Shown here in pieces: positions 5,733-60,087 of a DNA stretch of 64,000 nucleotides. The stretch is taken from assembly GCA_965262235.1 (NCBI GenBank), contig OZ253504.1:2582354-2646353 (forward strand), in the 5' to 3' direction. The stretch comes from Dehalococcoidia bacterium. Its GTDB lineage: Bacteria; Chloroflexota; Dehalococcoidia; Bin125. The notes below the pieces were generated by a model that saw nothing but the letters and a program-made list of their open reading frames with translations, made no database searches and was not told where the DNA came from. The position numbers and the translations under genes were made by a program. Each line of letters starts with the position of its first letter. Position 1 is the first letter of the stretch.

Positions 5733-5798
5733 GATTCTAGGTTAGGCGGCAGTGACTGCGCCGCACAACCGTTCGAGGACAACCGGAGATGTCACTCT

Positions 5799-6179
5799 TC
5801 ACCCGGGTTCCGCATCAGGCGGATATAGCCTTCGCGTTCGAAAGTCGTCCATGACCTCCATGGAGATGCAGTCGACCAGGCTGCAAGTCTTGTCGGAGAG
5901 ATTTTCGTAACGAGTAAGTGCTCGCGCGAAGAGGCCAGGGCGTTGCGCGACGACTTCAATGTTAGGGTTCGCATATAGACTACGGGTCAGTTTGGCGGCG
6001 GCGGCGCGAAGCTGCCGTCGCTTGTTCAAACGCGCCAGCACTTCGCTGAGCACACTGTCGGTAGTGACGATCTGCGCGTGTCCGACCGCTTCCTCCGCGA
6101 CGACGGCGGCCTCGTGAAGGTTATCCGCCGGATTGACCTTTGCGATCCAGAATGCGGCGTCAGCGAACACGCGGTGCAT
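5799..6179 (-). CDS. PIN-domain nuclease
   Basis: MHRVFADAAFWIA...IVTTDSVLSEV...SLVDCISMEVM...DD shows the PIN acidic residues. Alternative upstream start at 6227 would overlap the preceding gene. Confidence 0.55.
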   Translation of the reverse strand: MHRVFADAAFWIAKVNPADNLHEAAVVAEEAVGHAQIVTTDSVLSEVLARLNKRRQLRAAAAKLTRSLYANPNIEVVAQRPGLFARALTRYENLSDKTCSLVDCISMEVMDDFRTRRLYPPDAEPG

Positions 6180-6198
6180 CGGGAGAACACCCGTGGGA

Positions 6199-7113
6199 TC
6201 AGTGAGCGGCGCTGAAATAGTCGTCATGCCGGGCTGCCAAGTCTTGAGGCAGGGAGCCCCACTCGTCGTCAGGGACAGCTGCGAAGGCGGCGGTGACCAT
6301 CTCAGAAACGGTGGGGGCGGTCGGGTCGAACACCCAGTTTTCTAGACTGACATCGTCGATCGAATCGACGCGGTCGATGCGGTAGATTTCACCGTCGCTC
6401 CGGTAGCGTCCGAATCCGCGGACTCGCAGTTCGATCGAGTCGTGCTCGTGCAGGGCAGCTGTGATTTGGTCTTCCTGTTCCGGGGAGAAGATCGCGTTGA
6501 CGGACTCCGTCGTGCTCAACCATAGCTGGAAGGTGTGTCGGTGCACGTCGGCGGCGAGGACACGGCCAATCACGTCAACGATGTCATCAACGGTGTTGGG
6601 AAGGCGCCGGCGGAACTGTGCGCGTGCGATGTCATTGATTCGTGTCGGACGGCGATTCGCCGGCACGAATGCCAATGTAGCTCCGGAGGGAAGTCGCGAC
6701 CCAAGCTGGGCGTAGGTGTCGCAGAGGCTAGGGGTGAGTGCGGACGGCGGTTCCGTATCGCCTGAGACGGCGTCGTATGCGTCGCCCATGAACTTGACGG
6801 CCTCCGACAGTTCATTGTCGAACAGATCAAGCTGCTGGCCAGCAGTAGGCGAGCGGTCAAGGATGACAATAGTACTGCCCGATCTGATCTCGTGCATATG
6901 CACTTGTAGCGAATCAGTGAACCGCCGTGGCAATCGTTCGCGGTGCGGGTGACTCAGTTTCCACCTGGCCTTGGCAGTGTCAGAAATCGCACGCATGACC
7001 TTGACGACTTCCTCGAGGGCGCGATCGTCCAAGGCGCACGAGTCGTAGATGCCGCCAGAGAAACGCAGTTCGACGAGGGGGCTTTTGCTTTGGTCCATCG
7101 GTCCACTCCGCAC
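6199..7113 (-). CDS. hypothetical protein (304 aa), first gene of the MTase-containing cluster
   Basis: Long ORF with the lower-GC codon usage of this islet; no recognisable motif. Co-directional and tightly spaced with the PIN and MTase genes. Confidence 0.45.
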   Translation of the reverse strand: MRSGPMDQSKSPLVELRFSGGIYDSCALDDRALEEVVKVMRAISDTAKARWKLSHPHRERLPRRFTDSLQVHMHEIRSGSTIVILDRSPTAGQQLDLFDNELSEAVKFMGDAYDAVSGDTEPPSALTPSLCDTYAQLGSRLPSGATLAFVPANRRPTRINDIARAQFRRRLPNTVDDIVDVIGRVLAADVHRHTFQLWLSTTESVNAIFSPEQEDQITAALHEHDSIELRVRGFGRYRSDGEIYRIDRVDSIDDVSLENWVFDPTAPTVSEMVTAAFAAVPDDEWGSLPQDLAARHDDYFSAAH

Positions 7114-7204: not shown

Positions 7205-9457
7205 TTAGTGGGCGATCACGATCACGCCGCTTCGTTCTAGGGTGGCGAGTTCGTCGGCTCTTGAGATTCCGCTGAGGATTTCGTCGGCGTTGGAGCCGAG
7301 GATGGGGGCGGGCTGGCCGGGGACTACGGGGGTGCGGCTGAGGATCGCGGCGGGGCCGTTGGTGCGGATCTTGCCGCGGCCTTCGTGGTCTCTGGTGATC
7401 GAGAGGCCGCGGGACTGCGCCCAATCGCTCTCCATCGCCTCATCGACGGTGATCACTTCGGCGACGCCGATTCCCGCGCCGCGGAAGTGTTCGAGCCAGT
7501 GACTGACGGGATGGGCGCGAATGCGCCACTCGAGCTCCGCCTGCAGGCGATCACCTGCAGAGGCGACACCGCTGAGGCCGGGAACGCCCTCCAGCGCGGG
7601 GATGTCTCGCTCGCTCGCGCCGAGGAAGATCCAGCCGTCGGCGGCTTCGTAGAGGCGCTGCAGCGGGCCTTCGCCGAGCGCGCTCTGTCCGCGCGGCTCG
7701 GTCCAGGTCTTGCCCTCGTAGCCCTGCAGGAGCGACGACTGGAGGGTGCCCGCGGTGCGCGCCAGCGCGGTGTAGATCTCCTGCCCCTGACCGGTCCGCT
7801 CGCGGTGATAGAGCGCCATGCCCACGCCGAACGCGCCCATGATGCCGGTGCCGTAGTCGTTGATCGGGAACGGCTGGAGGGTCGGCGGATCGTCGCCGCC
7901 GTAGCGCGTCTGCATGCCCGTGGCGGCCTGCGCGAGCTGCTCCCAGCCGGCGCGCTCGGCCCACGGGCCGATCTCGCCGAAGGCGTTCAACGACGCGTAG
8001 ACGATGCCAGGGTGGCGCGCCGCGACATCTGCGTAGCCGATACCGAGTCGCTCGACGGCGCCCTTGCGGTAGTTCTGGACGACCACATCGGCGCCGGCGA
8101 CGAGGTTGTTGAAGATGTCGATTCCCGCCGTGGACTTGAGATCGAGCATGATGCTGCGCTTACCGCGGTTGACATCTTCGTGGAATCCGCCGCCCTCGCG
8201 TTTGGGGTCGTCGATCTTGATCACGTCAGCGCCGAACTCGGCCAGGGTTCGTCCGCAGGTCGGGCCGGCGAGGATGATGCAAAGGTCGATCGCGCGCATG
8301 CCCTCGAGCGCCTTCGAGAGTCGCGGTACGCCCTGGTAGGGCGCCGGCGGCTGCGCGGCAGCGACGCTCTCGAGGATCGCTTCGCGGTCGGCGTCGGGAG
8401 CGCGCTGTGCGTGGCCCGGCGCTCCGGGCGTGCGCGACATCCGCACCTGGATGCCCGGCTGCAGCATGGGGCCGAGGTCGGGGTCGTCGATCTCCACGAC
8501 CGCCTCCGACTGACGTGCATGTTCCTCGTGCAGCCACTCGGCGCTGTCGAGGCAGCGAACCGTCGGCGGGCCGGCCGCGTTGATCAGTTCTTCCCACTCC
8601 ATCGCAGGGCGCGTCTTGAAGATCTCGCTGAGGCGGCGGCGCGCCTCCGCCGCGAGTTCCGGTGAGCCGGCGAGCTGTGCCGATTGCGACCAGGGCTCGT
8701 CGAGCCACTCGGGGACGCCGGCGGCCTCACAGAACTGGCGCACGAAGTATGAGAACGCCGCATGGAAGAAGACCCAGCGCCCATCGGCGCACTCGTAGGC
8801 CGCGACCCACGGCATCTGTCGGCGCGTCGTGTCCTGTCCGATCACGCGCAGACCGGAGACGCCGACCGCCTGATAGATCGCGTCGTGCAGCGGCGACTCG
8901 ATGCGCTGGCCGAGCCCATCGCGCTCGCGTGCGACGAGCGCCATCGCGGTCGCCGTCACGCCGACGAACGCGCCGTAGACGGAGGCGATCGGGATCGCGG
9001 TGTAGATCGGCCGTGTCGAGGGCGTCCCGCCGAGCCGGGCGAAATATGTGCCCACGCCAGCGGAAACGACGCCCTCCCAAGCGGCGATGTCGCGCCGCTC
9101 GTCGCGCGCGCTGAAGCCGGGCATCGAGAGATAGATCAACCGGTCGTCGCGCGTGGTCATCTGCTCCGCGCCGAGGCCCAGGCGGTCCATCACGCCGGGG
9201 CGGAAGTTCTCGATCACGACATCGGCCGAGGCGATCAACTGCTCGGCGGTGCGCCGGTCGGCGCCCTGCTTGAGATCGAGGGCGATGCGCGACTTGCCGC
9301 GGTTCCAGATGGCGTTGGCGGGCGTGTCCCACGCGGGACCGCCGCGCGGGTCGACGCGAATCACCTCGGCGCCCTGGTCGGCGAGCAGCATGCCGGCGAG
9401 CGGCCCGGGGACCCACTGCCCAAAGTCGATTACGCGGAGTCCATCGAGCGCGCCCAT
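7205..9457 (-). CDS. tandem two-domain family III CoA-transferase (CaiB/BaiF x2 fusion)
   Basis: Two CaiB-type N-terminal signatures: LRVIDFGQWVPGPLAGMLLADQGAEVIRVDP and MRAIDLCIILAGPTCGRTLAEFGADVIKIDDP; 750 aa. Confidence 0.8.
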   Translation of the reverse strand: MGALDGLRVIDFGQWVPGPLAGMLLADQGAEVIRVDPRGGPAWDTPANAIWNRGKSRIALDLKQGADRRTAEQLIASADVVIENFRPGVMDRLGLGAEQMTTRDDRLIYLSMPGFSARDERRDIAAWEGVVSAGVGTYFARLGGTPSTRPIYTAIPIASVYGAFVGVTATAMALVARERDGLGQRIESPLHDAIYQAVGVSGLRVIGQDTTRRQMPWVAAYECADGRWVFFHAAFSYFVRQFCEAAGVPEWLDEPWSQSAQLAGSPELAAEARRRLSEIFKTRPAMEWEELINAAGPPTVRCLDSAEWLHEEHARQSEAVVEIDDPDLGPMLQPGIQVRMSRTPGAPGHAQRAPDADREAILESVAAAQPPAPYQGVPRLSKALEGMRAIDLCIILAGPTCGRTLAEFGADVIKIDDPKREGGGFHEDVNRGKRSIMLDLKSTAGIDIFNNLVAGADVVVQNYRKGAVERLGIGYADVAARHPGIVYASLNAFGEIGPWAERAGWEQLAQAATGMQTRYGGDDPPTLQPFPINDYGTGIMGAFGVGMALYHRERTGQGQEIYTALARTAGTLQSSLLQGYEGKTWTEPRGQSALGEGPLQRLYEAADGWIFLGASERDIPALEGVPGLSGVASAGDRLQAELEWRIRAHPVSHWLEHFRGAGIGVAEVITVDEAMESDWAQSRGLSITRDHEGRGKIRTNGPAAILSRTPVVPGQPAPILGSNADEILSGISRADELATLERSGVIVIAH

Positions 9458-9520
9458 CGGTGCCTCCTCTGCTGCGTGTGTGGGCGCAGGGTAGCTAGGC
9501 GCCGCGGGCGAGTTGCCTCG

Positions 9521-10120
9521 CTACCCGCTCAGCAACGCATCGGCCGCTTCGTCTATCACGGCGATGAATTCGGCTGGCGAGCGATCGTTGTGCAGGACCA
9601 GATTCGCTTTGGGCGCGCGTTCCTGCCAGGGCGTGGCCGACGCCCAGCGTTGCTCGGCCTCGGGGCGGGTGAGATCGTTGCGCGCCATCAGGCGCTGCAG
9701 CGCGGTCTCGGCGTCGCACGCGACGAGCCAGCCGGCGTCGCAGATCTGCATGTAGGGGCCCTCAAAGAGCCGCACGGCTTCGAAGACCGCGAGCGGCTGC
9801 GTGGCGTCGCGCAGCTCCGCGAGCAGGCGCATGAACTCGCCCTCGATGTCGCCGATCGCGGTGCGCAGTGCGGCGAGTCGCTCGGCGTTGCCGAAGACCA
9901 GCGCGCCGAGTGCCTTGCGGTCGATCGCGCCGCTCGCGGCGGTGACCTGCTCGCCGAACTCGGCGACGATCCGGCCGTGCGCGTCGGTACCGGGCTCATA
10001 CATCGCGTGGACGTAGCGGTCGGCGTCGAGGTGCGATGCGCCCCAGCGGTCAACCAGGCGTTGGCAGAGCAACGATTTCCCGGCAGCGATGGCGCCGGTG
10101 ACCCCGAGGACGATGGCCAT
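9521..10120 (-). CDS. coaE: dephospho-CoA kinase
   Basis: MAIVLGVTGAIAAGKS P-loop start and CoaE-like length. Start trimmed to the internal Met (track ORF extends to 10156). Confidence 0.8.
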   Translation of the reverse strand: MAIVLGVTGAIAAGKSLLCQRLVDRWGASHLDADRYVHAMYEPGTDAHGRIVAEFGEQVTAASGAIDRKALGALVFGNAERLAALRTAIGDIEGEFMRLLAELRDATQPLAVFEAVRLFEGPYMQICDAGWLVACDAETALQRLMARNDLTRPEAEQRWASATPWQERAPKANLVLHNDRSPAEFIAVIDEAADALLSG

Positions 10121-10188
10121 GATGATGCCCCTCGTGGCGGGAATAGTAGGGTACAAGAAATACGCGTTGTGATCGGCAATCCGGCTGC

Positions 10189-10686
10189 GTGGAGTGCGGG
10201 ATGAGTGAGTTCGAGCCGTCAGACGACGTGCCGTCGGGCACGCATGTGGCGCTGCCGATCGCCGAAGCTCACGTGAATGCCAATCTCGACTCGATCGATG
10301 CGATCGATTCGAAGGCGATGTTTCTCATCGGTCTGAATGTGGCGGGCGTCGGGATCTACGTCAGCGCTGTGGTAGCGCTCGGCTGGGGACTGGAGTGCAC
10401 GATCGCGCCCATCGCGTTCTTCCTCATCGCGACAGGCATCGGAATGTGGAGCGTGTGGCGCCTGAAGATTGCGCAGTTCCCATCGCCCGCTTCGATCATC
10501 GCGCTGCTGGGGGAGCACCTGAGCGACGAGCAGGTGGCGTGGGTCTTGCTCCATGGCATCGCCGAGGCGTCTCGCATGATCGAGCCGGTGCTCGAGCGCA
10601 AAGCGAGGCTCACGTTGGTCCTGCTGGTGCTTACCGTGAGCCACTCGGTAGCGATCGCGGGTAGCGCCGCTATCTGCGCCGGTTAG
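10189..10686 (+). CDS. hypothetical membrane protein
   Basis: 165-aa ORF with 3-4 hydrophobic helices (IGLNVAGVGIYVSAVVALGW..., IAFFLIATGIGMWSV..., LTLVLLVLTVSHSVAIAG). Confidence 0.4.
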   Translation: MECGMSEFEPSDDVPSGTHVALPIAEAHVNANLDSIDAIDSKAMFLIGLNVAGVGIYVSAVVALGWGLECTIAPIAFFLIATGIGMWSVWRLKIAQFPSPASIIALLGEHLSDEQVAWVLLHGIAEASRMIEPVLERKARLTLVLLVLTVSHSVAIAGSAAICAG

Positions 10687-42820: not shown

Positions 42821-43039
42821 ATGACCACGACAGAGCCCAGTCCGGCAACCTCGCAGATCAGCGAACGCGCCCGCCAGCGCGGAGTCGAGTTGTGGAGCGG
42901 CGAAGAACTGGTCGACATGCTGGACAAGATCTGCGAAGGCATGACTCAGGAAGAGCGCGAAGCGCTGGCCGACGAATTGGACCCCAAATGGCGCGACGAT
43001 GGCGGGCCTGAGTGGCGAACGGCGGACGATTTCAGTTGA
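42821..43039 (+). CDS. small hypothetical protein, possible antitoxin of the downstream PIN gene
   Basis: 72-aa acidic ORF immediately upstream of and overlapping the PIN gene. Confidence 0.35.
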   Translation: MTTTEPSPATSQISERARQRGVELWSGEELVDMLDKICEGMTQEEREALADELDPKWRDDGGPEWRTADDFS

Positions 43040-43481
43040 TACCAATGTGCTCAGCGCCATAGTGGGGCGGAGCGATGTCGGGGGCGCCTACCGAGATTTG
43101 TTGCGAAACTTCAGCGCGGTGGTGACGTATTTTGTGCGCGCTGAAATACAGGTGATCGACTGGCGACCAGCGGCATGGGACATCCTTGCAGTCTTTCTCA
43201 AAGATGATAATGCGTTTGACCCGCCAGGCTATGATGTGATCGAAGAGTATGTGCAGCTCAAACGGACAGCCATTGCGCTTGGCTTGCGCTATGGCGCAGA
43301 GCGGGAAGATCTCTGGATGCTGGCCCAGACTCGTAGCGTACAGCTGCCGGTGATGACTCACGATCGCAACGCCGCTCGCGTAGCACGGGCGGTTGGAATG
43401 CCAGTGGTGACCGCGTTATCCGACATCGAGGCGGACTACGCCCGTGATCGCGGGAGATTGGCGAGAACTCGATCGCGCTAA
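42999..43481 (+). CDS. PIN-domain ribonuclease (VapC-like toxin)
   Basis: ISVDTNVLSAIV N-terminus and EDLWMLAQTRSVQLPVMTHDRNAARVA C-terminus. Paralogous to the PIN ORF at 555-1043. Confidence 0.6.
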   Translation: MAGLSGERRTISVDTNVLSAIVGRSDVGGAYRDLLRNFSAVVTYFVRAEIQVIDWRPAAWDILAVFLKDDNAFDPPGYDVIEEYVQLKRTAIALGLRYGAEREDLWMLAQTRSVQLPVMTHDRNAARVARAVGMPVVTALSDIEADYARDRGRLARTRSR

Positions 43482-43518: not shown

Positions 43519-43866
43519 TCACTCTTCCTCAATCTCGATATCAGACCAGTCGTAAGCGTAGACCTGCGTGACCATTCCGCGCCACCAATGATCATTTTCC
43601 AGATTCAGCTGCATGCCTTCGGGCGCAAAACCCGCGCTGGGGCGCATTGTCGCCTTGCTCACCGCAATCGCAGGAAGCCATGGTCGCTGGTGTTTGCGAC
43701 AGACTTCGTCGCGGATGTAGCCCAACGGTAGGTTTACTCCTGGCGGGAACAGGCCGGTTGCATCCGCTAGCTCCTGATACGTGATTGTACGCATGTCTTG
43801 CGCGCGCTGCTTTAGTATCGCGAGCACTCTGTCGGTCTTGGCTGGAACTCTTACACGTTCGCTCAT
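43519..43866 (-). CDS. hypothetical protein with MGMT-like/winged-helix DNA-binding-type segment (no catalytic Cys)
   Basis: TITYQELADATGLFP...LGYIRDEVCRKHQRPWLPAIAVS resembles the Ogt/Ada C-terminal DNA-binding region but lacks PCHR. 4-bp overlap with the upstream CoA-transferase gene. Confidence 0.35.
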   Translation of the reverse strand: MSERVRVPAKTDRVLAILKQRAQDMRTITYQELADATGLFPPGVNLPLGYIRDEVCRKHQRPWLPAIAVSKATMRPSAGFAPEGMQLNLENDHWWRGMVTQVYAYDWSDIEIEEE

Positions 43867-45119
43867 GACAGCTCCGACAACACCTCGGCGGTGTGCTCGC
43901 CGAGCAGTGGTGGGCGCCTTGTGATTCCCCAGCTTCCCTTGGTGAGCTGATAGGGGGCGCCTGGATAGATCACTTCGCGACCCAGCTCCGGGTGTTCCAC
44001 CTTGACCTGCATGCCGCGGTCGACGAAGTGCGGGTCTTCGAGCGCCTCCTCGGGGCTGTGAATCACGCCGACCTGGAAGCCGAGGTTCTGGGCTTTGGTG
44101 AAGAACTCGTAGGCGCTGAGTTTCGACGCCAGCAGGTCGAAGGCCTGTCGGCCGGCGCCGAAGATCGCGAGCAGTTCCTCGTTGTTGCTGTTGAAGACAT
44201 CCGCCAGGGAGAACGATTCCAGCCCGGCGCCAACCTGCAGGAGCGCCGCTTCGGGAAGTTCATCCAGGAGGCCTTCCTCTTCCAACCAGCGGTAGACGAT
44301 GCCGAACTCGGCTGGGCGACGAGCCGGGATGCCGGTGTTGACGTAGCGACCGTCGGCACACTTGATCTGCGATGGCATCGACGGTGCGACGCCGGCGTGA
44401 CGGCCAGTCTGCCGTTGCACGGTCGCATGTGCGACCAACCATGAGTACGAACCGGATTCGGTCGTCACGTTGACGGATGCGTTGATATTGACGTTGATGT
44501 GCTGGCCGAGACCCGTGAGATCGCGATGTAGCAACGCTGTCAGAATCGACATAAAGGCGTAGTTTGAGCCCGTGTGATACGCCTGCTGTCCGCCGCCGCG
44601 CACCGGTGGCAACGAGTGATCGTCGTACCCGTTCATCCAGGTGAAGCCGCCGTTGGCGGCCAGTGTCAGGTCCGTGTGAGGCTCGTCGTCCCTCACCGAC
44701 CCGAAGCCGAAATTGGTGATCGTGCACCAGATCAACTTTGGGTTGTCGGACATCAGCTGATCAAACGACAGACCCAGGCGACCAACCGGATCGTATGTAG
44801 CGGTGTCGAAGATCACGTCGGCTGACTGCACCAGCTTGACGAATGCGTCGGCGTTGGACTGGTCGTCGAAGTCCATCACGATGCTGCGCTTGGACGTGTT
44901 GTAGTACCAGAAGAACAGCGATCGCTCACTGTCCGGTTCGTCGTCGACGAACGGTTCATACTGCCGCGACGGGTCGCCTTCCGGCGGCTCGATCTTGATC
45001 ACGTCGGCGCCCATGTCGGCCATCAGCTTGCCGCACCAGGCGCCGCGCTCATCACCGATCTCGAGCACGCGAAGGTCGTCGAGGGCCATCATCGCCAGGG
45101 GATTTGAGCTGGTTGTCAT
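43863..45119 (-). CDS. family III CoA-transferase (CaiB/BaiF)
   Basis: LRVLEIGDERGAWCGKLMADMGADVIKIEPPEGDP; 418 aa. Confidence 0.85.
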   Translation of the reverse strand: MTTSSNPLAMMALDDLRVLEIGDERGAWCGKLMADMGADVIKIEPPEGDPSRQYEPFVDDEPDSERSLFFWYYNTSKRSIVMDFDDQSNADAFVKLVQSADVIFDTATYDPVGRLGLSFDQLMSDNPKLIWCTITNFGFGSVRDDEPHTDLTLAANGGFTWMNGYDDHSLPPVRGGGQQAYHTGSNYAFMSILTALLHRDLTGLGQHINVNINASVNVTTESGSYSWLVAHATVQRQTGRHAGVAPSMPSQIKCADGRYVNTGIPARRPAEFGIVYRWLEEEGLLDELPEAALLQVGAGLESFSLADVFNSNNEELLAIFGAGRQAFDLLASKLSAYEFFTKAQNLGFQVGVIHSPEEALEDPHFVDRGMQVKVEHPELGREVIYPGAPYQLTKGSWGITRRPPLLGEHTAEVLSELS

Positions 45120-46393
45120 TAGATCACGCCCTCTTCGTGGAGCCCGGCGATCTCGTCCGGGCTCAAGCCCAACAGCTCGCCGTAGACGTAGTCGTTGTCC
45201 TCACCCAGCACGGCCGCGCCTCGCGTCATCGACCAATCCGTCTTCGACAGGTGCGCGGGGATGCCGTCGACACGGACGCGTCCCATCTCCGCCTGTCTGA
45301 TCGTCGGCCAGAGGCGGGCCTCGGCGGAGTTCGGGTCCTGGTCGATCCGTTGTTCCGGCGTCTGCACGGGATTGGCCGGCACGCCGGCGGCGCGCAGCAG
45401 CTCCGTCGATTCGAAGGGGTCGCGACGCAGACACCACTCAGCGATGTTCGCGTCGAGCTGATCCTGCGCCGCCACGCGTCCCGAGAGCTGGCCGTAGCAA
45501 TCGTCAGCAGCCCAACCACAACCGTCGGCGGCCAGCACGTCGCGCATCGCGTGCCAGTCCACGTCGTTGCGGCAGGCGATTGCGATCCAGGCCTCGTCGA
45601 ACGATCCGGGAATCGGCATGGCCGCGTAGATGTTGTGCGGGGCCATCGCCGGATGCAGCGAGTGATTGGCGTCGGGATAGCCATCGCGGCGCAGCGGTCG
45701 ACCATTGACGGTGTAGTCCAGGAGCACCGGACCGTTCAACGTGATCGCTGCTTCGGTTGCCGCGACATCGACGTACTGCCCCTCGCCGGTGCGATTGCGA
45801 TGGTGGATCGCCAGCATGATCGCCATCGCCATGAAGTAGGAGCCGGTGTGGTCCATGTAGGAGTAGCCCCAGCCGGCCGGCGGCTGATCGGGAAGCGCCG
45901 AGGACATCGTCAGCCCGCTGGTCGCCTGAACGATTGGTCCCCATGTCTTGAACTTCTCGTACGGGCCGGAGTGACCGAAGCCGCAGTTGGAGACATAGAT
46001 GATGTCTTCCCTGATCTGCTTGAGCTGCTCGTAGTCGTAACCCCATGAGCGCATCACGCCGGAGGAGAAGTTCTCGGTCACGCAGTCGGAGATGGCGACC
46101 AGCCGCTCGAATAGCTCGCGCCCCTTTTCGGTCTTGATGTTCAGCGAGACCCCGAGCTTGCCCACGTTGTGGTTGTTGAACGGTCCGCCCAGCTCGGGGC
46201 CGCGCCGGTCGTCCACATAGGGCGGCATCCCACGCAGGATGTCCCAGCGGCCGTGGTTGGAGGGGTCCTCGATGCGGATCACCTCGGCACCGAAGGCGGC
46301 CATGAATTTGGTCGCGCCAGCGCCGGCGAGCTGCCCGGTGAAATCGCAGATGCGCAGGTGCCCGAGGGCGCCGCGTCCGCCTGGTCGCCTCAT
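45119..46393 (-). CDS. family III CoA-transferase (CaiB/BaiF)
   Basis: LRICDFTGQLAGAGATKFMAAFGAEVIRIEDPSNHG; 424 aa; 1-bp overlap with the downstream paralog. Confidence 0.85.
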   Translation of the reverse strand: MRRPGGRGALGHLRICDFTGQLAGAGATKFMAAFGAEVIRIEDPSNHGRWDILRGMPPYVDDRRGPELGGPFNNHNVGKLGVSLNIKTEKGRELFERLVAISDCVTENFSSGVMRSWGYDYEQLKQIREDIIYVSNCGFGHSGPYEKFKTWGPIVQATSGLTMSSALPDQPPAGWGYSYMDHTGSYFMAMAIMLAIHHRNRTGEGQYVDVAATEAAITLNGPVLLDYTVNGRPLRRDGYPDANHSLHPAMAPHNIYAAMPIPGSFDEAWIAIACRNDVDWHAMRDVLAADGCGWAADDCYGQLSGRVAAQDQLDANIAEWCLRRDPFESTELLRAAGVPANPVQTPEQRIDQDPNSAEARLWPTIRQAEMGRVRVDGIPAHLSKTDWSMTRGAAVLGEDNDYVYGELLGLSPDEIAGLHEEGVI

Positions 46394-51442: not shown

Positions 51443-52636
51443 ATGAGCGGGGGGACGATGGCGATCACGCCTCGAATCGATGTCGATCCAGGGTTGATCG
51501 AGTGGGCGTGCGTACGGTCTCGCGTGCAGCGAGCAGATCTGGAGCGGAAGTTCAGGGGACTCCCGAGATGGCTTGCGGGAGAGGAGTCTCCAACTTCGGC
51601 GCAGCTCCAGTCGTTCGCGAAGGCAACGTACACGCCGTTTGGCTATTTCTTCAGTCCAGAGCCCCCAGCAGACGCTCTGCCTGTCAGCGATTTTCGGGTC
51701 CGAACGGGCGGGCTACTGGATCGACCTTCACCACATTTGCTGGACACGATCTACAACTGTCAGGATCGGCAGGCGTGGTATCGCGACTATCTGCAGGCGA
51801 GTGGAGAGCCGCCTGTTGACTGGATTGGATCGCAGGTCCTCGAGGGCGATCCGACGACGGCGGCGAGACGATTTGCTCGCGAAGTAGGTTTGGGCGTGGA
51901 GTCCCGATCTGGTGCGTCAACCTGGGAGGATGCGCTGAGGGATGCCCGACGGATGTTGGAAGCCGTGGGCGTATTGGTGATGGTGAACGGTGTTGTGGGA
52001 AACAATACCCGCAGGCGGCTCGATCCCGACGAGTTCATCGGATTCGCGCTGGCAGACGATCTGGCGCCCTTGATATTCATCAACAACGCCGACTACAAGG
52101 CGTCGCAGATGTTCTCGGTGGCTCACGAGATCGGGCATCTACTCTTGGGCGAGTCTGGAGTCTCCGACGATTCAGTCGGCGTAGAGCAGGCGCCAGACAA
52201 CGAGAGGTGGTGTGATCACTTCGCGGCAGAACTATTGGTTCCCGAAGCAGATCTGCAAGCGCAGGATCTCGACTTCAGGGAAGTGGCCCGAGATGATCTA
52301 CAGAGCTTAGCGCGCCGATACAAGGTCAGTAAGGTCGTGGTGCTGCGTCGCCTGCGAACGGTGGGTCTCATCGGTATTCGTCGGTATTCTGACCTGTTCG
52401 CTGAAGAGCGACAAGAATTCGCGGCGCGGCGAGCAGCACGCGATGGTGACACCGGCCGCGGAGGGAACTTCTACAACACATTCTTCCAGAGAACCGGACG
52501 CCGATTTGTCTGGGCCGTGGTAGCCAGCACCTTGGGCGGGCAGACGACATACGACGAAATGTCGAGATTACTTGGAATTAGCACGTTCGAGACTTTCGAC
52601 AAGATCGCGGCGGACTTTGGAATGGCGCGCCCATGA
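51443..52636 (+). CDS. XRE-like N-terminal region fused to ImmA/IrrE-family zinc metallopeptidase
   Basis: FSVAHEIGHLLLGE (HExxH of COG2856 ImmA/IrrE). 397 aa; 4-bp overlap with the downstream DUF4411 gene. Confidence 0.7.
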   Translation: MSGGTMAITPRIDVDPGLIEWACVRSRVQRADLERKFRGLPRWLAGEESPTSAQLQSFAKATYTPFGYFFSPEPPADALPVSDFRVRTGGLLDRPSPHLLDTIYNCQDRQAWYRDYLQASGEPPVDWIGSQVLEGDPTTAARRFAREVGLGVESRSGASTWEDALRDARRMLEAVGVLVMVNGVVGNNTRRRLDPDEFIGFALADDLAPLIFINNADYKASQMFSVAHEIGHLLLGESGVSDDSVGVEQAPDNERWCDHFAAELLVPEADLQAQDLDFREVARDDLQSLARRYKVSKVVVLRRLRTVGLIGIRRYSDLFAEERQEFAARRAARDGDTGRGGNFYNTFFQRTGRRFVWAVVASTLGGQTTYDEMSRLLGISTFETFDKIAADFGMARP

Positions 52637-53130
52637 CCGATCTCATCGACGCAAACGTCTTGATCGAGGCTTACCGAAGATACTATAGCATGGACATTTG
52701 TCCTGGGTTTTGGGACTGGCTCGGTGGTGCCTTGGCTCTCGGCGATGTCGTTCTGATTCCGCAAGTCGCGCGTGAAGTGACGCCGCGTTCTCAGATCCTA
52801 ATCAACTGGCTCCGTAATGATGCAACCATCCAGGAGCCGAGGAATCTCGCGCCAATCGATCACTCTCGTCGGCAGGTGACGGCCAGGGTCAATCAGTTGG
52901 GGTGTACTCCCTATTCTGTGAACAAGTTTATGCTTGGCGGCGATTTCCACTTGGCTGCTTTCGCAGATGCTGGGGGTCACAGGATTGTCACACTTGAGAC
53001 AAAAGAGGATCCTAACAAGTCGAGCAGAAGACTCAAGCTTCCAGACCTCTGTGACTCCATGGGCATCGAGTGGGCAAGGCCGTTTCAGATGCTTAAGGAC
53101 CACGGAGTGCGGTTCGAGTGGTCTGGATAG
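52633..53130 (+). CDS. DUF4411 (PIN-like) family protein
   Basis: MTDLIDANVLIEAYRRYYSMDICPGFWDWL matches the DUF4411 N-terminal pattern. Distinctly lower GC than the surroundings. Confidence 0.6.
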   Translation: MTDLIDANVLIEAYRRYYSMDICPGFWDWLGGALALGDVVLIPQVAREVTPRSQILINWLRNDATIQEPRNLAPIDHSRRQVTARVNQLGCTPYSVNKFMLGGDFHLAAFADAGGHRIVTLETKEDPNKSSRRLKLPDLCDSMGIEWARPFQMLKDHGVRFEWSG

Positions 53131-53309: not shown

Positions 53310-54239
53310 CTAGCCCAAGACGCCGCTGAGGAAGCTGTTGACGCGGTTTGTGCCGTCCATGCCGGCGGGGGTGGGGAAGTTGTCGAAGCCGTGGGGGGCC
53401 TCGGGGAACACGTGGAGGTCTGTCTCGTGCCCGGCCGCCTCCCAACGGGCCGCCATGAAGAGGGTGTCATCGAGCAGCGGATCGAGCGTGCCCACGATGA
53501 AGATCGCCGGGGGCATGTCGTGCAGACGCGCCAGCAGCGGCGTCACGTCGGGGTCGTCGCGGTCCGCGGGGTCCACATAGTGGTCGATGAACCACTCCAT
53601 GATCGGGCTCGAGAGGATCAGGTTGCGCTCGCCCCAGAGCCGGGCTGAGGGCGAATGCCGTAGGTCGTAGACGCCGTAGATCAGCGCCGCGCCGAGGAAG
53701 CCGGTGTAGCCGTGGTTGTCGCGCATCCGCAGCAGCGTGGTTGCCGAGAGGTGCCCGCCGGCCGACTCGCCGCCGATCGTGAACTTGTCGGCGCCGAACT
53801 CCGACTGACCGTTCTCGACCAGCCAGACAGCGGCCGCTTCGCAGTCGTCGTTGCTGGCCGGCCAGCGATGCTCGGGCGCCAGTCGGTAGCCGACCGAGAC
53901 CACGGCCTGCTGGGTCGCCTGGGCGCGCTCCCAGAGCCGCTCGTCGGCGCCGTCGTGCGAGCCGATCACCCAGCCGCCGCCGTGGATGTGCAGGTAGACG
54001 CCGTTCACGACCTCCGGCACGAAGACGCGGATCGGAATGTCGCCGGCCGGCCCGGCAATCGTGCGCTCCTGCGCGATGTCGTCAAGGCGCGGCGGCGGCG
54101 GCCCAAACGGCCCACCCTCGGCCAGCGCGTCGCGCACCTCCTGCGCGCCCATCTCGTTCCACGGCTTGGCATCGGCCGAGAGCGTTTCGATCATCTGGTT
54201 CAGCGCCACCGTCTGCGGATCTGCTCGCATCACACTCAC
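53310..54239 (-). CDS. alpha/beta hydrolase, esterase/lipase (HSL family)
   Basis: HGGGW oxyanion motif and GESAGG nucleophile elbow. Confidence 0.8.
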   Translation of the reverse strand: MSVMRADPQTVALNQMIETLSADAKPWNEMGAQEVRDALAEGGPFGPPPPRLDDIAQERTIAGPAGDIPIRVFVPEVVNGVYLHIHGGGWVIGSHDGADERLWERAQATQQAVVSVGYRLAPEHRWPASNDDCEAAAVWLVENGQSEFGADKFTIGGESAGGHLSATTLLRMRDNHGYTGFLGAALIYGVYDLRHSPSARLWGERNLILSSPIMEWFIDHYVDPADRDDPDVTPLLARLHDMPPAIFIVGTLDPLLDDTLFMAARWEAAGHETDLHVFPEAPHGFDNFPTPAGMDGTNRVNSFLSGVLG

Positions 54240-54361
54240 CCTTCACGGTTCGGATTGAACTCAGTATACGAAGGCCCACGGTTCGAACAAGCGTCCTGTG
54301 ATCGGCTAGAGTCTCGCCGTGCGATGCTAGGGAGCCGGAACCCCGACCGAGAGGAACGCTG

Positions 54362-54829
54362 ATGCCGCTGCCCGATTCGATCGAAGCCACCGCCAACGGA
54401 CTGATCTCACGCCTGTTGGACACGATCGACGGCCTGACCGCCGAACAGCTCGACGCCCGCCCGCTCGACGAAGCGAGTTCGCTGTTCATCCTCGTGACCC
54501 ACGCCATCTCCGCGACCGAGTGGAACTTCGTCGAAGTGCTCGCCGGCGGCAACGTCGACCGCACGCGACAGGTCGAATTCGACGCGCAAGCCGCCGACTT
54601 CGACGACCCCGCTGGCATGTTGCGCGACCGCTGGGCGAGCGCTCGAGACGCGATCCACAACGCGCTCGCCTCGCTCGATGACGACGAGTGGGACCGCCTG
54701 CGGATGCACATTTTCCAGCAGCGCGAGATCACGGGCTGGGATGTCGTGTGCTCCGCCCTCGCGCACACCGGCGAGCATGTCGGCCACGCCGAACTCACCC
54801 GCCAGATGCTCGACAACGAAGCGCTCTAG
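54362..54829 (+). CDS. DinB/YfiT-like (DinB_2) metal-dependent four-helix-bundle protein
   Basis: LVTHAISATEW...ALAHTGEHVGH His-rich pattern typical of the DinB_2/mycothiol-dependent-enzyme-like fold. Confidence 0.65.
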   Translation: MPLPDSIEATANGLISRLLDTIDGLTAEQLDARPLDEASSLFILVTHAISATEWNFVEVLAGGNVDRTRQVEFDAQAADFDDPAGMLRDRWASARDAIHNALASLDDDEWDRLRMHIFQQREITGWDVVCSALAHTGEHVGHAELTRQMLDNEAL

Positions 54830-54866
54830 GCCGAACTACGATTGATCGCCGAGGAGTCCGCGACCG

Positions 54867-56018
54867 ATGATCATCACCCGCCTGGTGCTGGAGAACTGGC
54901 GCAACTTCCGCGAAGTCGACATCGCGCTCCAGCAGCGTACGTTTATCGTCGGCCCGAACGCATCAGGCAAGTCGAACCTGCTCGACGCCGTGCGGTTTCT
55001 CCGCGACGTGTCGAACGACGGTCTGCAGCGAGCCCTCGACCAACGCGGTGGCATCTCCAAGATCCGCTGCTTGGCCGGACGCCAGGCACCAGGCGTCACG
55101 CTCGACGTCAGCATCGGCGCCTCTGACGATCAGTCGCCGCAGTGGCGTTACCGGCTGGGAATCCGCCGGGAACCGACCGGGCGTCACCGAACGCTCGTCA
55201 CCACCGAGCAGGTTTGGAATGCGGAGGGCGAACTGCTGATCGACCGCCCGAGCGACCGTGAGCGCGACGATCCTGAGCTGCTAACACAGACGGCGATCGA
55301 GCAGGTGAGCGAGAACCGCGGGTTTCGCGACATCGCAGCATTCTTCAAATCGGTGAGCTACCTGCATCTGGTTCCGCAGATGATTCGCTACGGGGATGAG
55401 TCGCGCCAGGCGTCGTCGGGCAATGATCCCTTCGGGCGCGGCTTTCTGGAGCGCATCGCCGAGACACCGGAGCGGACGCGTGAGCGTCGCCTGCGCAAGA
55501 TCGGTGCACAGCTACATGCAATCCAGCCGCTGTTCGATGGGACCCTGGTCGTTGCCAGGGACGAGCGCGGCCAGCCGCACCTCGAGGCGCGTTTCGACCA
55601 CTGGCGCCCGAAGGCAGGCAAGCAGCGCGAGGATCAGTTTTCGGATGGCACGCTGCGCCTGATCGGCCTGCTCTGGGCGCTCATGGAAGGCTCCGGCCCG
55701 CTGTTGCTGGAAGAGCCGGAGCTGTCGCTACAGAACGACCTGGTCAGTCAGCTGGCCGCGATGTTCGCTCGTGTCGGCAAACGCGAGCGCCAGGTGCTCG
55801 TCACGACGCACTCGCCCGATCTCCTGGACGATGAGGGGATCATGCCCGAGGAGGTCTTGCTCATCGAGCCGTCGAAGAACGGTTCGGTGATCACGTCGGG
55901 CGCGGAAGATCTCTCGGCGGTTGCGATCTCCGAACATGGCGGGCATGTGGGCGACATGCTGCTCGCGATGGCCGTCAGGCGTGGCGGCGCTCAGCTGCCC
56001 CTTCGCTCTGCGCAATGA
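54867..56018 (+). CDS. ABC/OLD-family AAA ATPase (AAA_15/AAA_21-like)
   Basis: Walker A GPNASGKSNLLDA, signature-like FSDGTLRLIGLL, Walker B LLLEEPE, H-loop VTTHSP; 383 aa. Confidence 0.75.
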   Translation: MIITRLVLENWRNFREVDIALQQRTFIVGPNASGKSNLLDAVRFLRDVSNDGLQRALDQRGGISKIRCLAGRQAPGVTLDVSIGASDDQSPQWRYRLGIRREPTGRHRTLVTTEQVWNAEGELLIDRPSDRERDDPELLTQTAIEQVSENRGFRDIAAFFKSVSYLHLVPQMIRYGDESRQASSGNDPFGRGFLERIAETPERTRERRLRKIGAQLHAIQPLFDGTLVVARDERGQPHLEARFDHWRPKAGKQREDQFSDGTLRLIGLLWALMEGSGPLLLEEPELSLQNDLVSQLAAMFARVGKRERQVLVTTHSPDLLDDEGIMPEEVLLIEPSKNGSVITSGAEDLSAVAISEHGGHVGDMLLAMAVRRGGAQLPLRSAQ

Positions 56019-56593
56019 CGGTTCGCGTCGCGGTTGAAGGGCGCCTCGATCTCGTGGTTGTCCAGCGACTGCTGTCAGACCATGATCTCGTCGCGGCGCC
56101 GGTTCGACGGGCCCGTGGCCGTGATGCCATCTTGGACAGGCTGATGGGATACAACGTCGCGGCCGAACGCGAGCCGTGGTTGGTTCTGGTCGACCTTGAT
56201 CGCGATGTGTGCGCCGCTGAGGCTGTGCAGCTGTGGCTTCCTCATCCTGCAGCACGAATGACCTTTCGAATCGCAGTCCGTGCCGTGGAGGCATGGCTGT
56301 TGGCGGATCGCGGAATCGCGAGATTCCTCCGAGTGCAACCGCGCTTCCTCCCTGAAGACCCAGATGCGCTCGGCGATCCGAAGCGTCGCCTTGTACAGAT
56401 TGTGAGCGAGGAGTGTCGGTCTTCATCGGTCCGCTCAGCGATCATGCGTTCCGACGGCAGCACTCGTGCGGGGCAGCGTTACAACGAATTTCTTGCGGAG
56501 TTCGTGTCGAACGATTGGGATTGGCGCGGCGCTGCCCGGCGGTCCGACTCGCTTCGACGCGCCGTTGAGGCGATCGCTCGGATCGGCGGTTGA
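56015..56593 (+). CDS. small TOPRIM-like protein (DUF4276-like) coupled to the ATPase
   Basis: RVAVEGRLDLVVVQRLL (conserved Glu), LVLVDLDRD (DxD) and VRAVEAWLLAD fit a minimal TOPRIM/DUF4276 pattern. ATGA start-stop overlap with the ATPase gene. Confidence 0.5.
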   Translation: MTVRVAVEGRLDLVVVQRLLSDHDLVAAPVRRARGRDAILDRLMGYNVAAEREPWLVLVDLDRDVCAAEAVQLWLPHPAARMTFRIAVRAVEAWLLADRGIARFLRVQPRFLPEDPDALGDPKRRLVQIVSEECRSSSVRSAIMRSDGSTRAGQRYNEFLAEFVSNDWDWRGAARRSDSLRRAVEAIARIGG

Positions 56594-56680
56594 ACGAGGA
56601 CTCGGCGCGGGACTGGGGAGCGACGGCGGGCTGACGGGGCGATGCCTCTATCCTGAACGCAATCACGCACGCAGCTCCCC

Positions 56681-57625
56681 ATGAAACGGACAGCGAACAT
56701 GCCAGTTGACCCTGCCGCTCAGGTGTTGCTTGACCAGCTTGCGGAAGCCGGCGGGCCCGACATCTCAGAACAGACCCCCGAGGAAGCCCGCGCGATGATC
56801 GAGGGCTTCGCGATGATGCAGCTCGGCGCCCCCGAGCCGCCCATCGTCTTCGACCGCACGGTGCCCGGCCCCGCCGGCGACATCCCTGTCCGCGTCTACG
56901 CGGCCGAAGGCGACAACCTGCCGGTGCTCGTCTTCTTCCACGGCGGCGGCTGGGTCGTCGGCAACATCGTGTCGCACGACGGCGTCTGCAAGCAGCTGCT
57001 GGCCGAGCTCGGCGACGCGGTCGTCGTGGCCGTCGACTACCGCCTGGCGCCCGAGCACAAGTACCCCGCGGCGGCCGACGATTGCTACGCCGCGACGGCG
57101 TGGGTCGCCGAGAACGCCGACCAGATCGGGGGCGACGGCTCGCGGGTCGCGGTCTGCGGCGATAGCGCGGGTGGCAACCTCTCAGCCGTCGTGGCCCAGA
57201 TGGCGCGCGACAAGGGCGGCCCCGCGATCGCCGCGCAGATTCTGCACGTGCCGGTGACCGACCACAACTATGACCGCCCTTCTTACAGCGACAACGCTGA
57301 GGGCTATCTGCTCACGCGCGCCAGCATGGTCTGGTTCTGGGACCACTACCTGTCCAGCGCGGAACAGGGCCAGGAGGCCTACGCCTCGCCGCTGCAGGCC
57401 GACGACCTCTCCAACCTCGCCCCGGCGCTGGTCCAGACGGCCGAGTACGATCCGCTGCGCGACGAGGGCGAAGCCTATGCCGCGGCGCTGACCGAGGCCG
57501 GCAACGAGGTGACGGTGCGTCGCTACGACGGGCAGATTCACGATCCGCTGATGATGTTCGCGATCAATCCCGCCGGGCTCGAAGCGCTCAAGGAAGCCGC
57601 CGAGTTCGTGACCTCGCGCTGGTAA
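56681..57625 (+). CDS. alpha/beta hydrolase, esterase/lipase (HSL family)
   Basis: FFHGGGW and GDSAGG motifs; 314 aa. Confidence 0.85.
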   Translation: MKRTANMPVDPAAQVLLDQLAEAGGPDISEQTPEEARAMIEGFAMMQLGAPEPPIVFDRTVPGPAGDIPVRVYAAEGDNLPVLVFFHGGGWVVGNIVSHDGVCKQLLAELGDAVVVAVDYRLAPEHKYPAAADDCYAATAWVAENADQIGGDGSRVAVCGDSAGGNLSAVVAQMARDKGGPAIAAQILHVPVTDHNYDRPSYSDNAEGYLLTRASMVWFWDHYLSSAEQGQEAYASPLQADDLSNLAPALVQTAEYDPLRDEGEAYAAALTEAGNEVTVRRYDGQIHDPLMMFAINPAGLEALKEAAEFVTSRW

Positions 57626-57695: not shown

Positions 57696-58622
57696 ATGCC
57701 AATCACCGCTGAAGTGCAGGAGATTCTCAAGCTGCGCGCCGCGGCGCCGGCGATGCACACGCTCTCCGTCGAGGAAGCGCGCATTTCGTCCGCCGCCGGG
57801 CGTATTCAACCCGACCCGCCGGAGCCCGTCGCCCGCATCGAAGACTTCACGATTCCCGGCCCCGCGGGTGACATCCCGGTGCGGCTCTACTCGCCCGATC
57901 CCGATACCCAACTACCCGCCGTGGTGTACTACCACGGCGGCGGGTGGGTGGTCGGCGACCTCGACTCGCACGATCCGCTCTGCCGCGCGCTCGCCAACCG
58001 AGCGAACGTGGTCGTGCTGTCCGTGCACTACCGTCTCGCCCCCGAGCACAAATACCCCGCCGCAGCCGACGATTCGTACGCAGCCGCGCAATGGGTCAGC
58101 GAGCACGGCGCGGAGATCGGGGCCGACGGCTCACGGATCGTTGTCTGCGGCGACAGCGCCGGCGGCAACCTCTCGGCGGTCGTTTCGCTCATGGCCCGCG
58201 ACCGCGGCGGCCCCGGACTGCGCGGGCAGGTGCTGATCTACCCGGTCACGAACCTCGACTTCGGGACCGACTCCTACCGCGACAACGGCGACGGCTCGAA
58301 GGGGCTGTCGGAAGACGGCATGCGCTGGTTCTGGCAGCACTACGTCCGCACGCAGTCCGAAGGCTTCGAGCCCTACGCCTCGCCGCTACGCGCCGACACG
58401 ATCGCCGACCTGCCTCCCGCCCTGGTGATCACCGCTGAATACGACGCGCTTCGTGACGAAGGCGAGCTCTATGCGGATCGCCTCGAGCGCGGCGGCGTCA
58501 CGACCCAACTCACGCGCTACGACGGCGTGATCCACGGGTTCGTGGGCATGTTCGCGGCGGTGCCCGAGGGCAACACGGCGGTGAATCAGATCGCCGAGTT
58601 TCTCAAGGAGACGCTCGCCTGA
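57696..58622 (+). CDS. alpha/beta hydrolase, esterase/lipase (HSL family), tandem paralog
   Basis: YYHGGGW and GDSAGG; strong similarity to the upstream esterase (shared HYRLAPEHKYPAAADD). Confidence 0.85.
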   Translation: MPITAEVQEILKLRAAAPAMHTLSVEEARISSAAGRIQPDPPEPVARIEDFTIPGPAGDIPVRLYSPDPDTQLPAVVYYHGGGWVVGDLDSHDPLCRALANRANVVVLSVHYRLAPEHKYPAAADDSYAAAQWVSEHGAEIGADGSRIVVCGDSAGGNLSAVVSLMARDRGGPGLRGQVLIYPVTNLDFGTDSYRDNGDGSKGLSEDGMRWFWQHYVRTQSEGFEPYASPLRADTIADLPPALVITAEYDALRDEGELYADRLERGGVTTQLTRYDGVIHGFVGMFAAVPEGNTAVNQIAEFLKETLA

Positions 58623-59034: not shown

Positions 59035-60087
59035 CTAGAGATTGCTCTGGGCCAGCTCGGCCATCAGCTCCAGCGCATCGGGCTGCTCGCTGTTGACGGT
59101 GACGCCGGTGATGTAGCTGTCGGCCCAGGCGCGGTAGCGCTCGCGGATCCGCGCCGGCGGGCCGACCAGCGACTGTTCGTCGAGGAAGTCGTCGGGGACC
59201 GCTTCCATCGCCTCCGCCTTGCGGCCGGCCATGTAGAGCTCCTGGATCCGCTCGGCCGCCTCGCCGTAGCCGCGCCGAATCATCGACATCTTGTGGAAGT
59301 TGAGCGTGCGGTGGCCCATGCCGCCGACGTACAGAGCGACGTTCGGCTTCATCTTGCGCAACGCGCTGCCGACATCGTCGGTCAGCTCAACGGTGCAGGA
59401 TGCCTGAACCTCGAAGTCGGACCAGCCTTTCGGCTGTCCGGTCTTCGCCTCGGCGCGGCGGAAGCCTTCTTCGATCCAGGGCACAAACAGATCGGCGTTG
59501 TGCGGCGTCAGCCCGAGCGGAAGCCAGCCGTCGGCGATCTCGGCGGTCAGCTTGACGTTGGCCTCGGCGCCGGTGCCCAGCCAGATGGGGATGTGCGGGT
59601 TCATGTGCAGAATCGAGCGCAGCGGCTTGGCCAGTCCGCTGCTGCCGGGGCCGTCGTACGGCAGCGAAATCTCCTTGCCGTCGTGTGTGACTGGCGCTTC
59701 GCGAGCGAGGATCTTGCGGATGATCGCCACATAGTCGCGAATCCTCGGGTTGGGCCGACCCCACGGCTGGCCATACCAGCCTTCGACGATCTGCGGGCCG
59801 GACACGCCAATCCCGACGATGACGCGGTCGTGACCAGCCAGGGCGTCGATCGTCGCCGCGGTCATCGCGGCGTTGGCCGGTGTGCGGGCGGCCAACTGGA
59901 TGACGCCCGTGCCCAGCCGAATTCGCGCGGTCAGCGCCGCCGCGTAGGCCAGCGGCGAGAACGCGTCGGAGCCGTAGGCCTCGGCGGTCCAGATCGAGTC
60001 GTAGCCGAGCGCCTCCGCGCTCTGAATCTGTTCGATGGGCAGCCGCATGTCGGCGCCCGAATAGCCGAGCGCGAGTCCGAGTTTCAT
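59035..60087 (-). CDS. LLM-class F420-dependent oxidoreductase
   Basis: MKLGLALGYSG start and TIM-barrel LLM pattern typical of the F420-dependent subgroup; 350 aa. Confidence 0.75.
   Translation of the reverse strand: MKLGLALGYSGADMRLPIEQIQSAEALGYDSIWTAEAYGSDAFSPLAYAAALTARIRLGTGVIQLAARTPANAAMTAATIDALAGHDRVIVGIGVSGPQIVEGWYGQPWGRPNPRIRDYVAIIRKILAREAPVTHDGKEISLPYDGPGSSGLAKPLRSILHMNPHIPIWLGTGAEANVKLTAEIADGWLPLGLTPHNADLFVPWIEEGFRRAEAKTGQPKGWSDFEVQASCTVELTDDVGSALRKMKPNVALYVGGMGHRTLNFHKMSMIRRGYGEAAERIQELYMAGRKAEAMEAVPDDFLDEQSLVGPPARIRERYRAWADSYITGVTVNSEQPDALELMAELAQSNL

Follow-up and report, generated by a model that had tools for sequence, protein, structure and literature searches.

A stand-alone HEC-01 gene pair in a Dehalococcoidia bacterium, probably an ATPase-controlled TOPRIM nuclease module of phage defence

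Two overlapping genes on contig OZ253504.1 of a Dehalococcoidia bacterium encode an ABC-type ATPase (protein A) and a small TOPRIM protein (protein B). To which system does this pair belong, and does it serve in phage defence? The pair lies in a stretch of 64,000 nucleotides, here called the window, and had been interpreted in an original prediction as an ATPase plus TOPRIM pair of the defence type. Both proteins were compared with the PADLOC hidden Markov models (HMMs), as that prediction had proposed. A matched HEC-01A (PDLC04180) with an E-value of 1e-134 and 447.5 bits, residues 1-372 aligning with positions 1-373 of the 382 in the profile. B matched HEC-01B (PDLC04194) with an E-value of 4.9e-53, residues 2-189 aligning with positions 5-196 of 204. 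With full-length matches to both models, the pair is almost certainly HEC-01. It is an ordinary representative of an already catalogued system and not a new one, which is the only point missed by an otherwise essentially correct interpretation. Because standard defence annotation with PADLOC would label the pair HEC-01, the identification alone adds little. HEC-01 is abundant, yet the evidence on its role in defence comes from two tests, one negative and one positive.

HEC-01 was defined by Payne et al. as an ATPase of the ABC type together with a TOPRIM protein, embedded in Hma (helicase-methylase-ATPase) systems (bioRxiv 10.1101/2024.01.29.577857). The window pair resembles this definition in gene order, the ABC ATPase coming first and a TOPRIM-like protein of about 200 amino acids (aa) second, and in its conserved metal-binding site. 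It differs in standing alone, between a DinB/mycothiol-S-transferase-like gene and an Abhydrolase_3 esterase gene. No match to HmaA, HmaB or HmaC was found among ten large open reading frames (ORFs) elsewhere in the window. Hma embedding is the context in which HEC-01 was discovered and is not required by the PADLOC models; the window pair lacks it.

Both plus-strand ORFs and their ATGA overlap were confirmed in the sequence at the positions originally predicted (Table 1). GAGGAG precedes A and no Shine-Dalgarno-like sequence lies upstream of the B start, an arrangement that fits translational coupling. Neither a sigma-70-type promoter nor an intrinsic terminator was detected in a scan of positions 54200-56800. 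GC content at third codon positions (GC3) is 0.80 in A and 0.65 in B, against 0.86-0.91 in the flanking genes. An antisense ORF of 232 aa (55728-56426) competes with B. The exact sequence of A is present in a collection of 15 billion proteins and that of B is not, the closest B homologs returned from it being at most 58% identical; perhaps no gene was ever called for B in the public record.

The motifs predicted for A, those of the AAA_15/AAA_21 class, were all found: Walker A GPNASGKS (residues 29-36), the signature SDGT (259-262), Walker B LLLEEPE (279-285) and the H-loop H315. In an alignment with 61 homologs the invariant residues were G29, N31, A32, G34, K35 and S36 of Walker A, S259-D-G-T262, L279-L-(L)-E282-E283-P-E285, and H315. 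Pfam matches were to AAA_21 (E 1.2e-31), AAA_15, SMC_N and AAA_29. The AlphaFold model of A has an ABC head fold, with a predicted local distance difference test score (pLDDT) of 89.2 and a predicted template modelling score (pTM) of 0.89, and lacks a coiled-coil insertion. A thus has the ABC ATPase fold and the intact nucleotide-binding motifs of HEC-01. Its family is large, with more than 8000 matches at E<=1e-10.

The AlphaFold model of B (pLDDT 95, pTM 0.90) is that of an OLD-type TOPRIM domain extended by a helical tail: four strands make up a beta-alpha core, and helices come after it. Structurally, B resembles the DNA-cleaving OLD nucleases most. The E...DxD residues on which a TOPRIM fold had been predicted lie in RVAVEGRLD (residues 4-12) and LVLVDLDRD (residues 56-64), and the model and the conserved acidic residues both bore that prediction out. 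E8, D60, E92 and D98 are invariant among the homologs, G9, D12 and K123 are conserved in at least 90% of them, and D62 is the majority residue at its position. In the two-metal site of BpOLD, metal A is bound by E400/D455/D457 and metal B by E404/T506/E508, with K562 in addition (PMC6755086). In order, spacing and secondary-structure positions, E8/D60/D62 and D12/E92 appear to match this site. By analogy with BpOLD E400/D455/D457 and E404/E508, E8/D60/D62 would form the metal A site of B and D12/E92 its metal B site. B therefore has the TOPRIM fold and OLD-like metal-binding site that belong to HEC-01.

The assignment of B to a sequence family is looser. DUF4276 has been placed in the TOPRIM superfamily (PMC12065111). 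B scored 15.1 bits (E 0.029) against Pfam DUF4276 (PF14103), below the gathering threshold of 30.2 bits, whereas 57 of 77 aligned close homologs matched at E<=0.01, and two of the 122 homologs found are named 'DUF4276 family protein' by their sources. B, which had earlier been labelled DUF4276-like, belongs to a peripheral DUF4276 subfamily. B had no match in NCBIfam or PHROGs, and sequence and profile searches of the PDB gave chance-level matches only. A profile search returned 3124 B-family clusters at 50% identity, 1419 of them at E<=1e-30, and the best 150 representatives are all stand-alone proteins of about 150-270 aa. That the small ORF is coding, as predicted, is borne out by its HMM match, its homologs, its AlphaFold model and a syntenic ortholog with 58% identity.

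To examine how constant the pairing is, 185,579 species genomes were scanned by pattern, and 493 loci encoding B relatives were obtained, spread over many phyla and mostly in metagenome-assembled genomes (MAGs). Eighty loci were kept for context analysis. An A homolog lies directly upstream of B on the same strand in 79/80, so the order A then B is nearly obligate across phyla, and the A stop and the B start are mostly -8 to +24 nt apart in 78 related loci. Clustering of the neighbouring ORFs among the 80 loci placed HmaA (SNF2 helicase) directly upstream of the pair in 13 and showed HmaB (DUF1156 methylase) in 9 and HmaC (DUF499) in 6. About 13/80 pairs are embedded in Hma; the remainder lie in unrelated, largely metabolic contexts. 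Over 400 random locus pairs the divergences of A and B are correlated (r = 0.81), and in 99% of them B has diverged further than A (mean identity 49.5% for B and 59.8% for A). An effector that diverges faster than its sensor is unusual and worth explaining.

The history of the pair was followed in four loci that share the window backbone at 59-89% protein identity: L081 and L082, from one European Nucleotide Archive sample, and L002 and L018, which are Dehalococcoidia MAG chromosomes. The shared backbone comprises AMP-binding, esterase, DinB, esterase, esterase, SnoaL, Glyoxalase_3 and M20 genes. L081 and L082 carry orthologs of the window pair at the same site between DinB and esterase (site 1), A being about 76% identical, like the flanking genes, and B about 58%. 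Recent insertion of the pair is ruled out by these same-site orthologs and by A, which matches its flanking genes in conservation. The DinB gene, 37 bp upstream of the pair, was rejected as a part of the system, as a GH3 gene intervenes in L081 and L082 and the pair lies elsewhere in L002 and L018. The DinB gene and the esterase paralogs had been thought to form an accessory stretch around the pair; they are instead conserved backbone genes of native codon composition.

L081 and L082 have a second HEC-01-type pair on the minus strand between SnoaL and Glyoxalase_3 (site 2; 13003-14699 in L081, 14150-15882 in L082). The corresponding slot of the window contains a luciferase-like monooxygenase gene (59035-60087) and no second pair. 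L018 carries a pair at site 2 only. The L002 pair (8853-10588) belongs to the clade of the window pair (A 64%, B 44% identical) and lies between the luciferase-like monooxygenase and SnoaL genes, inverted with respect to the backbone, with none at site 1; the module has moved, or has been re-acquired, within the neighbourhood. Alleles at these chromosomal hotspots have turned over rapidly in this lineage. The flanks of L081 and L082 are 96-98% identical in DNA and their site-1 pairs 99% identical, whereas protein identity between the cassettes at site 2 is only 35% for A and 47% for B, with one breakpoint within the last ~27 codons of B. This is a whole-cassette swap between near-identical genomes. 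Different alleles on the same backbone at two sites are a pattern typical of defence hotspots. The lineage amounts to a natural experiment: two defined chromosomal slots carry orthologous alleles as well as swapped ones, which could help in choosing alleles for functional tests.

The best overall explanation, which is probably correct, is that the pair is a stand-alone HEC-01 module, an ATPase-controlled TOPRIM nuclease for phage defence. A defence role, as judged from sequence, is likely; it is supported by the conserved catalytic sites, the obligate pairing, the co-divergence of A and B, the Hma embedding of relatives and the hotspot allele exchange. The lowered GC3 of A and B, the protection given by one tested representative (PMC12881386) and the reduction of MADS defence on deletion of mad3 or mad4 (PMC12065111) also count in favour. 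The mechanism, in which a sensor releases a nuclease, is proposed more tentatively and has somewhat less than an even chance of being right. A and B would be expressed as a single translationally coupled operon, and A would assemble, dependent on ATP, into an oligomer by which B is held or controlled. A cue from the phage would alter the nucleotide state of A and so license B. B would then cut nucleic acid by two-metal TOPRIM chemistry, using the E8/D60/D62 and D12/E92 sites proposed from BpOLD, and this could stop phage replication, possibly at the cell's cost. OLD and Gabija act on DNA and PARIS acts on transfer RNA (tRNA); by its sequence B could cut either.

Several observations weigh against a role in defence. 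The HEC-01 representative of Payne et al. protected against none of the phages tested (bioRxiv 10.1101/2024.01.29.577857). The sole positive report, in a passage of a 2026 survey (PMC12881386), concerns one representative, a stand-alone cold-seep HEC-01 that gave E. coli B protection from one or more of the phages T7, T5 and T4, and the passage gives no effect size. B relatives were absent from 50,697 phage records, and a plasmid collection gave one, 32% identical, on a 2.3 Mb Ralstonia replicon (megaplasmid). The window pair has been inherited vertically at its site since the split from L081 and L082 and is not especially mobile here. Its immediate neighbours are metabolic genes, nothing in the window ties it to phages or mobile elements, and a tRNA gene is absent from the whole window. 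In cold-seep metagenomes, a 2026 survey places HEC-01 among the 12 most abundant system types.

Because architectures of the PARIS and AbiL type had been predicted, the pair was compared with other ABC ATPase plus TOPRIM systems, which include AbiL and MADS3-4 alongside OLD, Gabija and PARIS (PMC11464382). TOPRIM-linked OLD-ABC dyads, moreover, occur pervasively as auxiliary modules in BREX and BREX-related (Hma) systems (PMC12839542). The pair shares the architecture of PARIS, AbiL, MADS3-4 and OLD but belongs to none of them, failing on the effector or, for OLD, on the fusion state. The predicted likeness to PARIS and AbiL therefore holds for an ABC ATPase plus a separate TOPRIM protein and not for membership. 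Mad3/Mad4 of the methylation-associated defence system (MADS) of P. aeruginosa are likewise an AAA_15/21-type ATPase and a DUF4276-class TOPRIM protein (PMC12065111, PMC11464382), and A aligned along almost all of its length to PADLOC mad3, with an E-value of 1.6e-22 compared with 1e-134 for HEC-01A. However, A scored 65.6 bits against NCBIfam MADS3 (NF047739), where the cut-off is 420, and MAD6-8, which are mandatory in the MADS model, do not adjoin the pair. B matched no PADLOC model at E<=0.1 other than HEC-01B. A matched the AbiLi model at E 1.5e-21, over profile positions 50-261 of 326 only and far more weakly than HEC-01A, and B had no AbiLii match at E<=0.1 and no RloB match in Pfam at E<=10. 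The PARIS effector AriB is a 35 kDa DUF4435 protein, whereas B is DUF4276-like, has 192 aa and matches neither DUF4435 nor AriB. PARIS typically resides on P4 satellites and phages; the B family is absent from the phage collection. Unlike the OLD-family proteins (class 1/2) P2 Old, BpOLD, TsOLD and Gabija GajA, in which one polypeptide has the ATPase at its N-terminal and TOPRIM at its C-terminal end, the pair consists of two ORFs with a stop codon between them.

Other explanations of the pair were weighed. A could be a PARIS-like guard that senses phage anti-restriction proteins (Ocr-like DNA mimics) and releases B to cleave host tRNA, aborting infection. Such a guard would account for the frequent embedding in methylation-based Hma and BREX-related systems and for silence in an E. 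coli host deleted for restriction-modification (RM). It is nonetheless unlikely, given the size of B and its failure to match AriB or DUF4435 models, the DNA-cleaving OLD nucleases that are its best structural matches, and the lack, in most relatives and in the window pair, of an adjacent restriction or methylation system to guard. A related proposal is that HEC-01 is an autonomous PARIS-like guard, in which B is the faster-evolving, specificity-bearing component and cassette exchange at two fixed slots keeps the module polymorphic in this Dehalococcoidia-like lineage. The greater divergence of B in nearly all locus pairs, the unrelated site-2 alleles in near-identical genomes and the change of slot and orientation in L002 all suggest it, and it is conceivable although doubtful. 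If it is true, stand-alone copies would be the ancestral functional unit, recruited by Hma, BREX-related and MADS systems as anti-restriction backups. Alternatively, the pair could, like Mad3/Mad4, supply the nuclease to a methylation-based system of the Hma or BREX-related type, in which case a lone copy such as that of the window would be an orphaned remnant, barely active or inactive. Hma was the setting in which HEC-01 was discovered, the stand-alone HEC-01 of Payne et al. was inactive, and MADS defence is reduced by deletion of mad3, the analog of the ATPase gene, or of mad4, that of the DUF4276 gene (PMC12065111), each being needed for its full strength; mad5 can be deleted only together with mad2 or mad3. 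Against this, about 65/80 relatives stand alone with intact catalytic motifs, and the window pair and its L081/L082 orthologs retain all catalytic residues although they have diverged to 76% and 58% identity, which speaks for an autonomous function under purifying selection. With a stand-alone cold-seep HEC-01 also reported active in the survey passage (PMC12881386), dependence on a larger system is improbable.

An addiction module of the toxin-antitoxin (TA) kind, in which A neutralises the toxic nuclease B, or the reverse, and the pair persists selfishly without defence, is still less probable. The Pfam label of AAA_21 reads 'putative AbiEii toxin, Type IV TA system', the operon of two overlapping genes is tight, and ImmA/DUF4411 and PIN cassettes lie nearby. 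However, relatives are missing from the phage collection and nearly so from the plasmid collection, phages and plasmids being elements in which addiction modules are usually enriched, and Hma embedding and hotspot allele exchange fit defence better; TA and abortive-infection defence are, besides, not mutually exclusive. Finally, A could have a housekeeping role in DNA repair, as an ATPase like RecF, SbcC or Rad50 that is served by an accessory nuclease, the alternative against which the original prediction was to be checked. NCBIfam recF gave 37.7 bits against a cut-off of 172, aligning only the Walker A region (residues 3-45), and Rad50 and SMC models gave 21-23 bits against cut-offs of 567-1087, within residues 1-45 only. 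A is also short for such a protein, at 383 aa and without a coiled-coil insertion, and the pair is patchy across phyla and varies in position even among close relatives. This reading is scarcely credible and is effectively refuted. A nuclease module for phage defence remains the probable explanation.

Table 1. Coordinates of the HEC-01 pair, its expression signals and other features of the window
Feature	Positions	Strand	Remarks
GAGGAG Shine-Dalgarno-like hexamer	54851..54856	+	10 nt 5' of A start, read from sequence
ORF A, HEC-01A, ABC-type (AAA_21/AAA_15) ATPase	54867..56018	+	383 aa, ATG start; presumed sensor/regulator
ATGA start/stop overlap	56015..56018	+	4 bases shared by A (TGA) and B (ATG); couples B to A
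ORF B, HEC-01B, DUF4276-like TOPRIM protein	56015..56593	+	192 aa, ATG start, C-terminal helical extension; presumed nuclease effector
ImmA/IrrE M78 peptidase and overlapping DUF4411 protein	51443-53130	+	397 aa and 165 aa
Abhydrolase_3 esterase paralogs (three)	53310-54239, 56681-57625, 57696-58622		Conserved backbone genes across syntenic loci
CoA-transferase family III paralogs (four)	1349-2548, 7205-9457, 43863-45119, 45119-46393

Other genes near the pair vary among the syntenic loci. Genes for N6_N4 DNA methyltransferases, present once in L081 and L082 and as two paralogs in L018, and a GH3 gene lie in slots between the esterase, DinB and esterase genes (5358-7067 and 7582-8724 in L081; 14659-18071 and ~13008-14069 in L018) and are absent from the window and L002. 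No restriction partner of the methyltransferases was identified in L081, L082 or L018. They were rejected as obligate partners of HEC-01, being missing from the window and L002.

The ImmA/IrrE protein of the window matched Pfam Peptidase_M78 (E 2.9e-18) and the PADLOC capP and RmrA-like models. Because GC3 is 0.66 and 0.61 in the two genes of the ImmA/DUF4411 cassette, below the 0.86-0.91 of the flanks, the cassette was probably acquired horizontally. L018 has it in the same slot (65% and 51% identity), and L081 and L082 have a 114-aa ORF and a 655-aa SEC-C protein there instead. It was rejected as part of the HEC-01 system, since two native genes intervene and the cassette varies independently.

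Two patches of low GC content lie farther away. One (0.57 at 3-4 kb) spans positions 2805-7113 on the minus strand and encodes an Eco57I-like RM methylase of 975 aa (Pfam E 1.4e-6; PADLOC mad2, E 2.6e-11, and MTase_II), a PIN ORF (5799-6227) and an unassigned 304-aa ORF (6199-7113); the patch may represent a second islet of defence or TA genes. The other (0.585 at 43-44 kb), between CoA-transferase genes, contains a plus-strand PIN-domain ORF of 160 aa (42999-43481), which may encode a VapC-like toxin.
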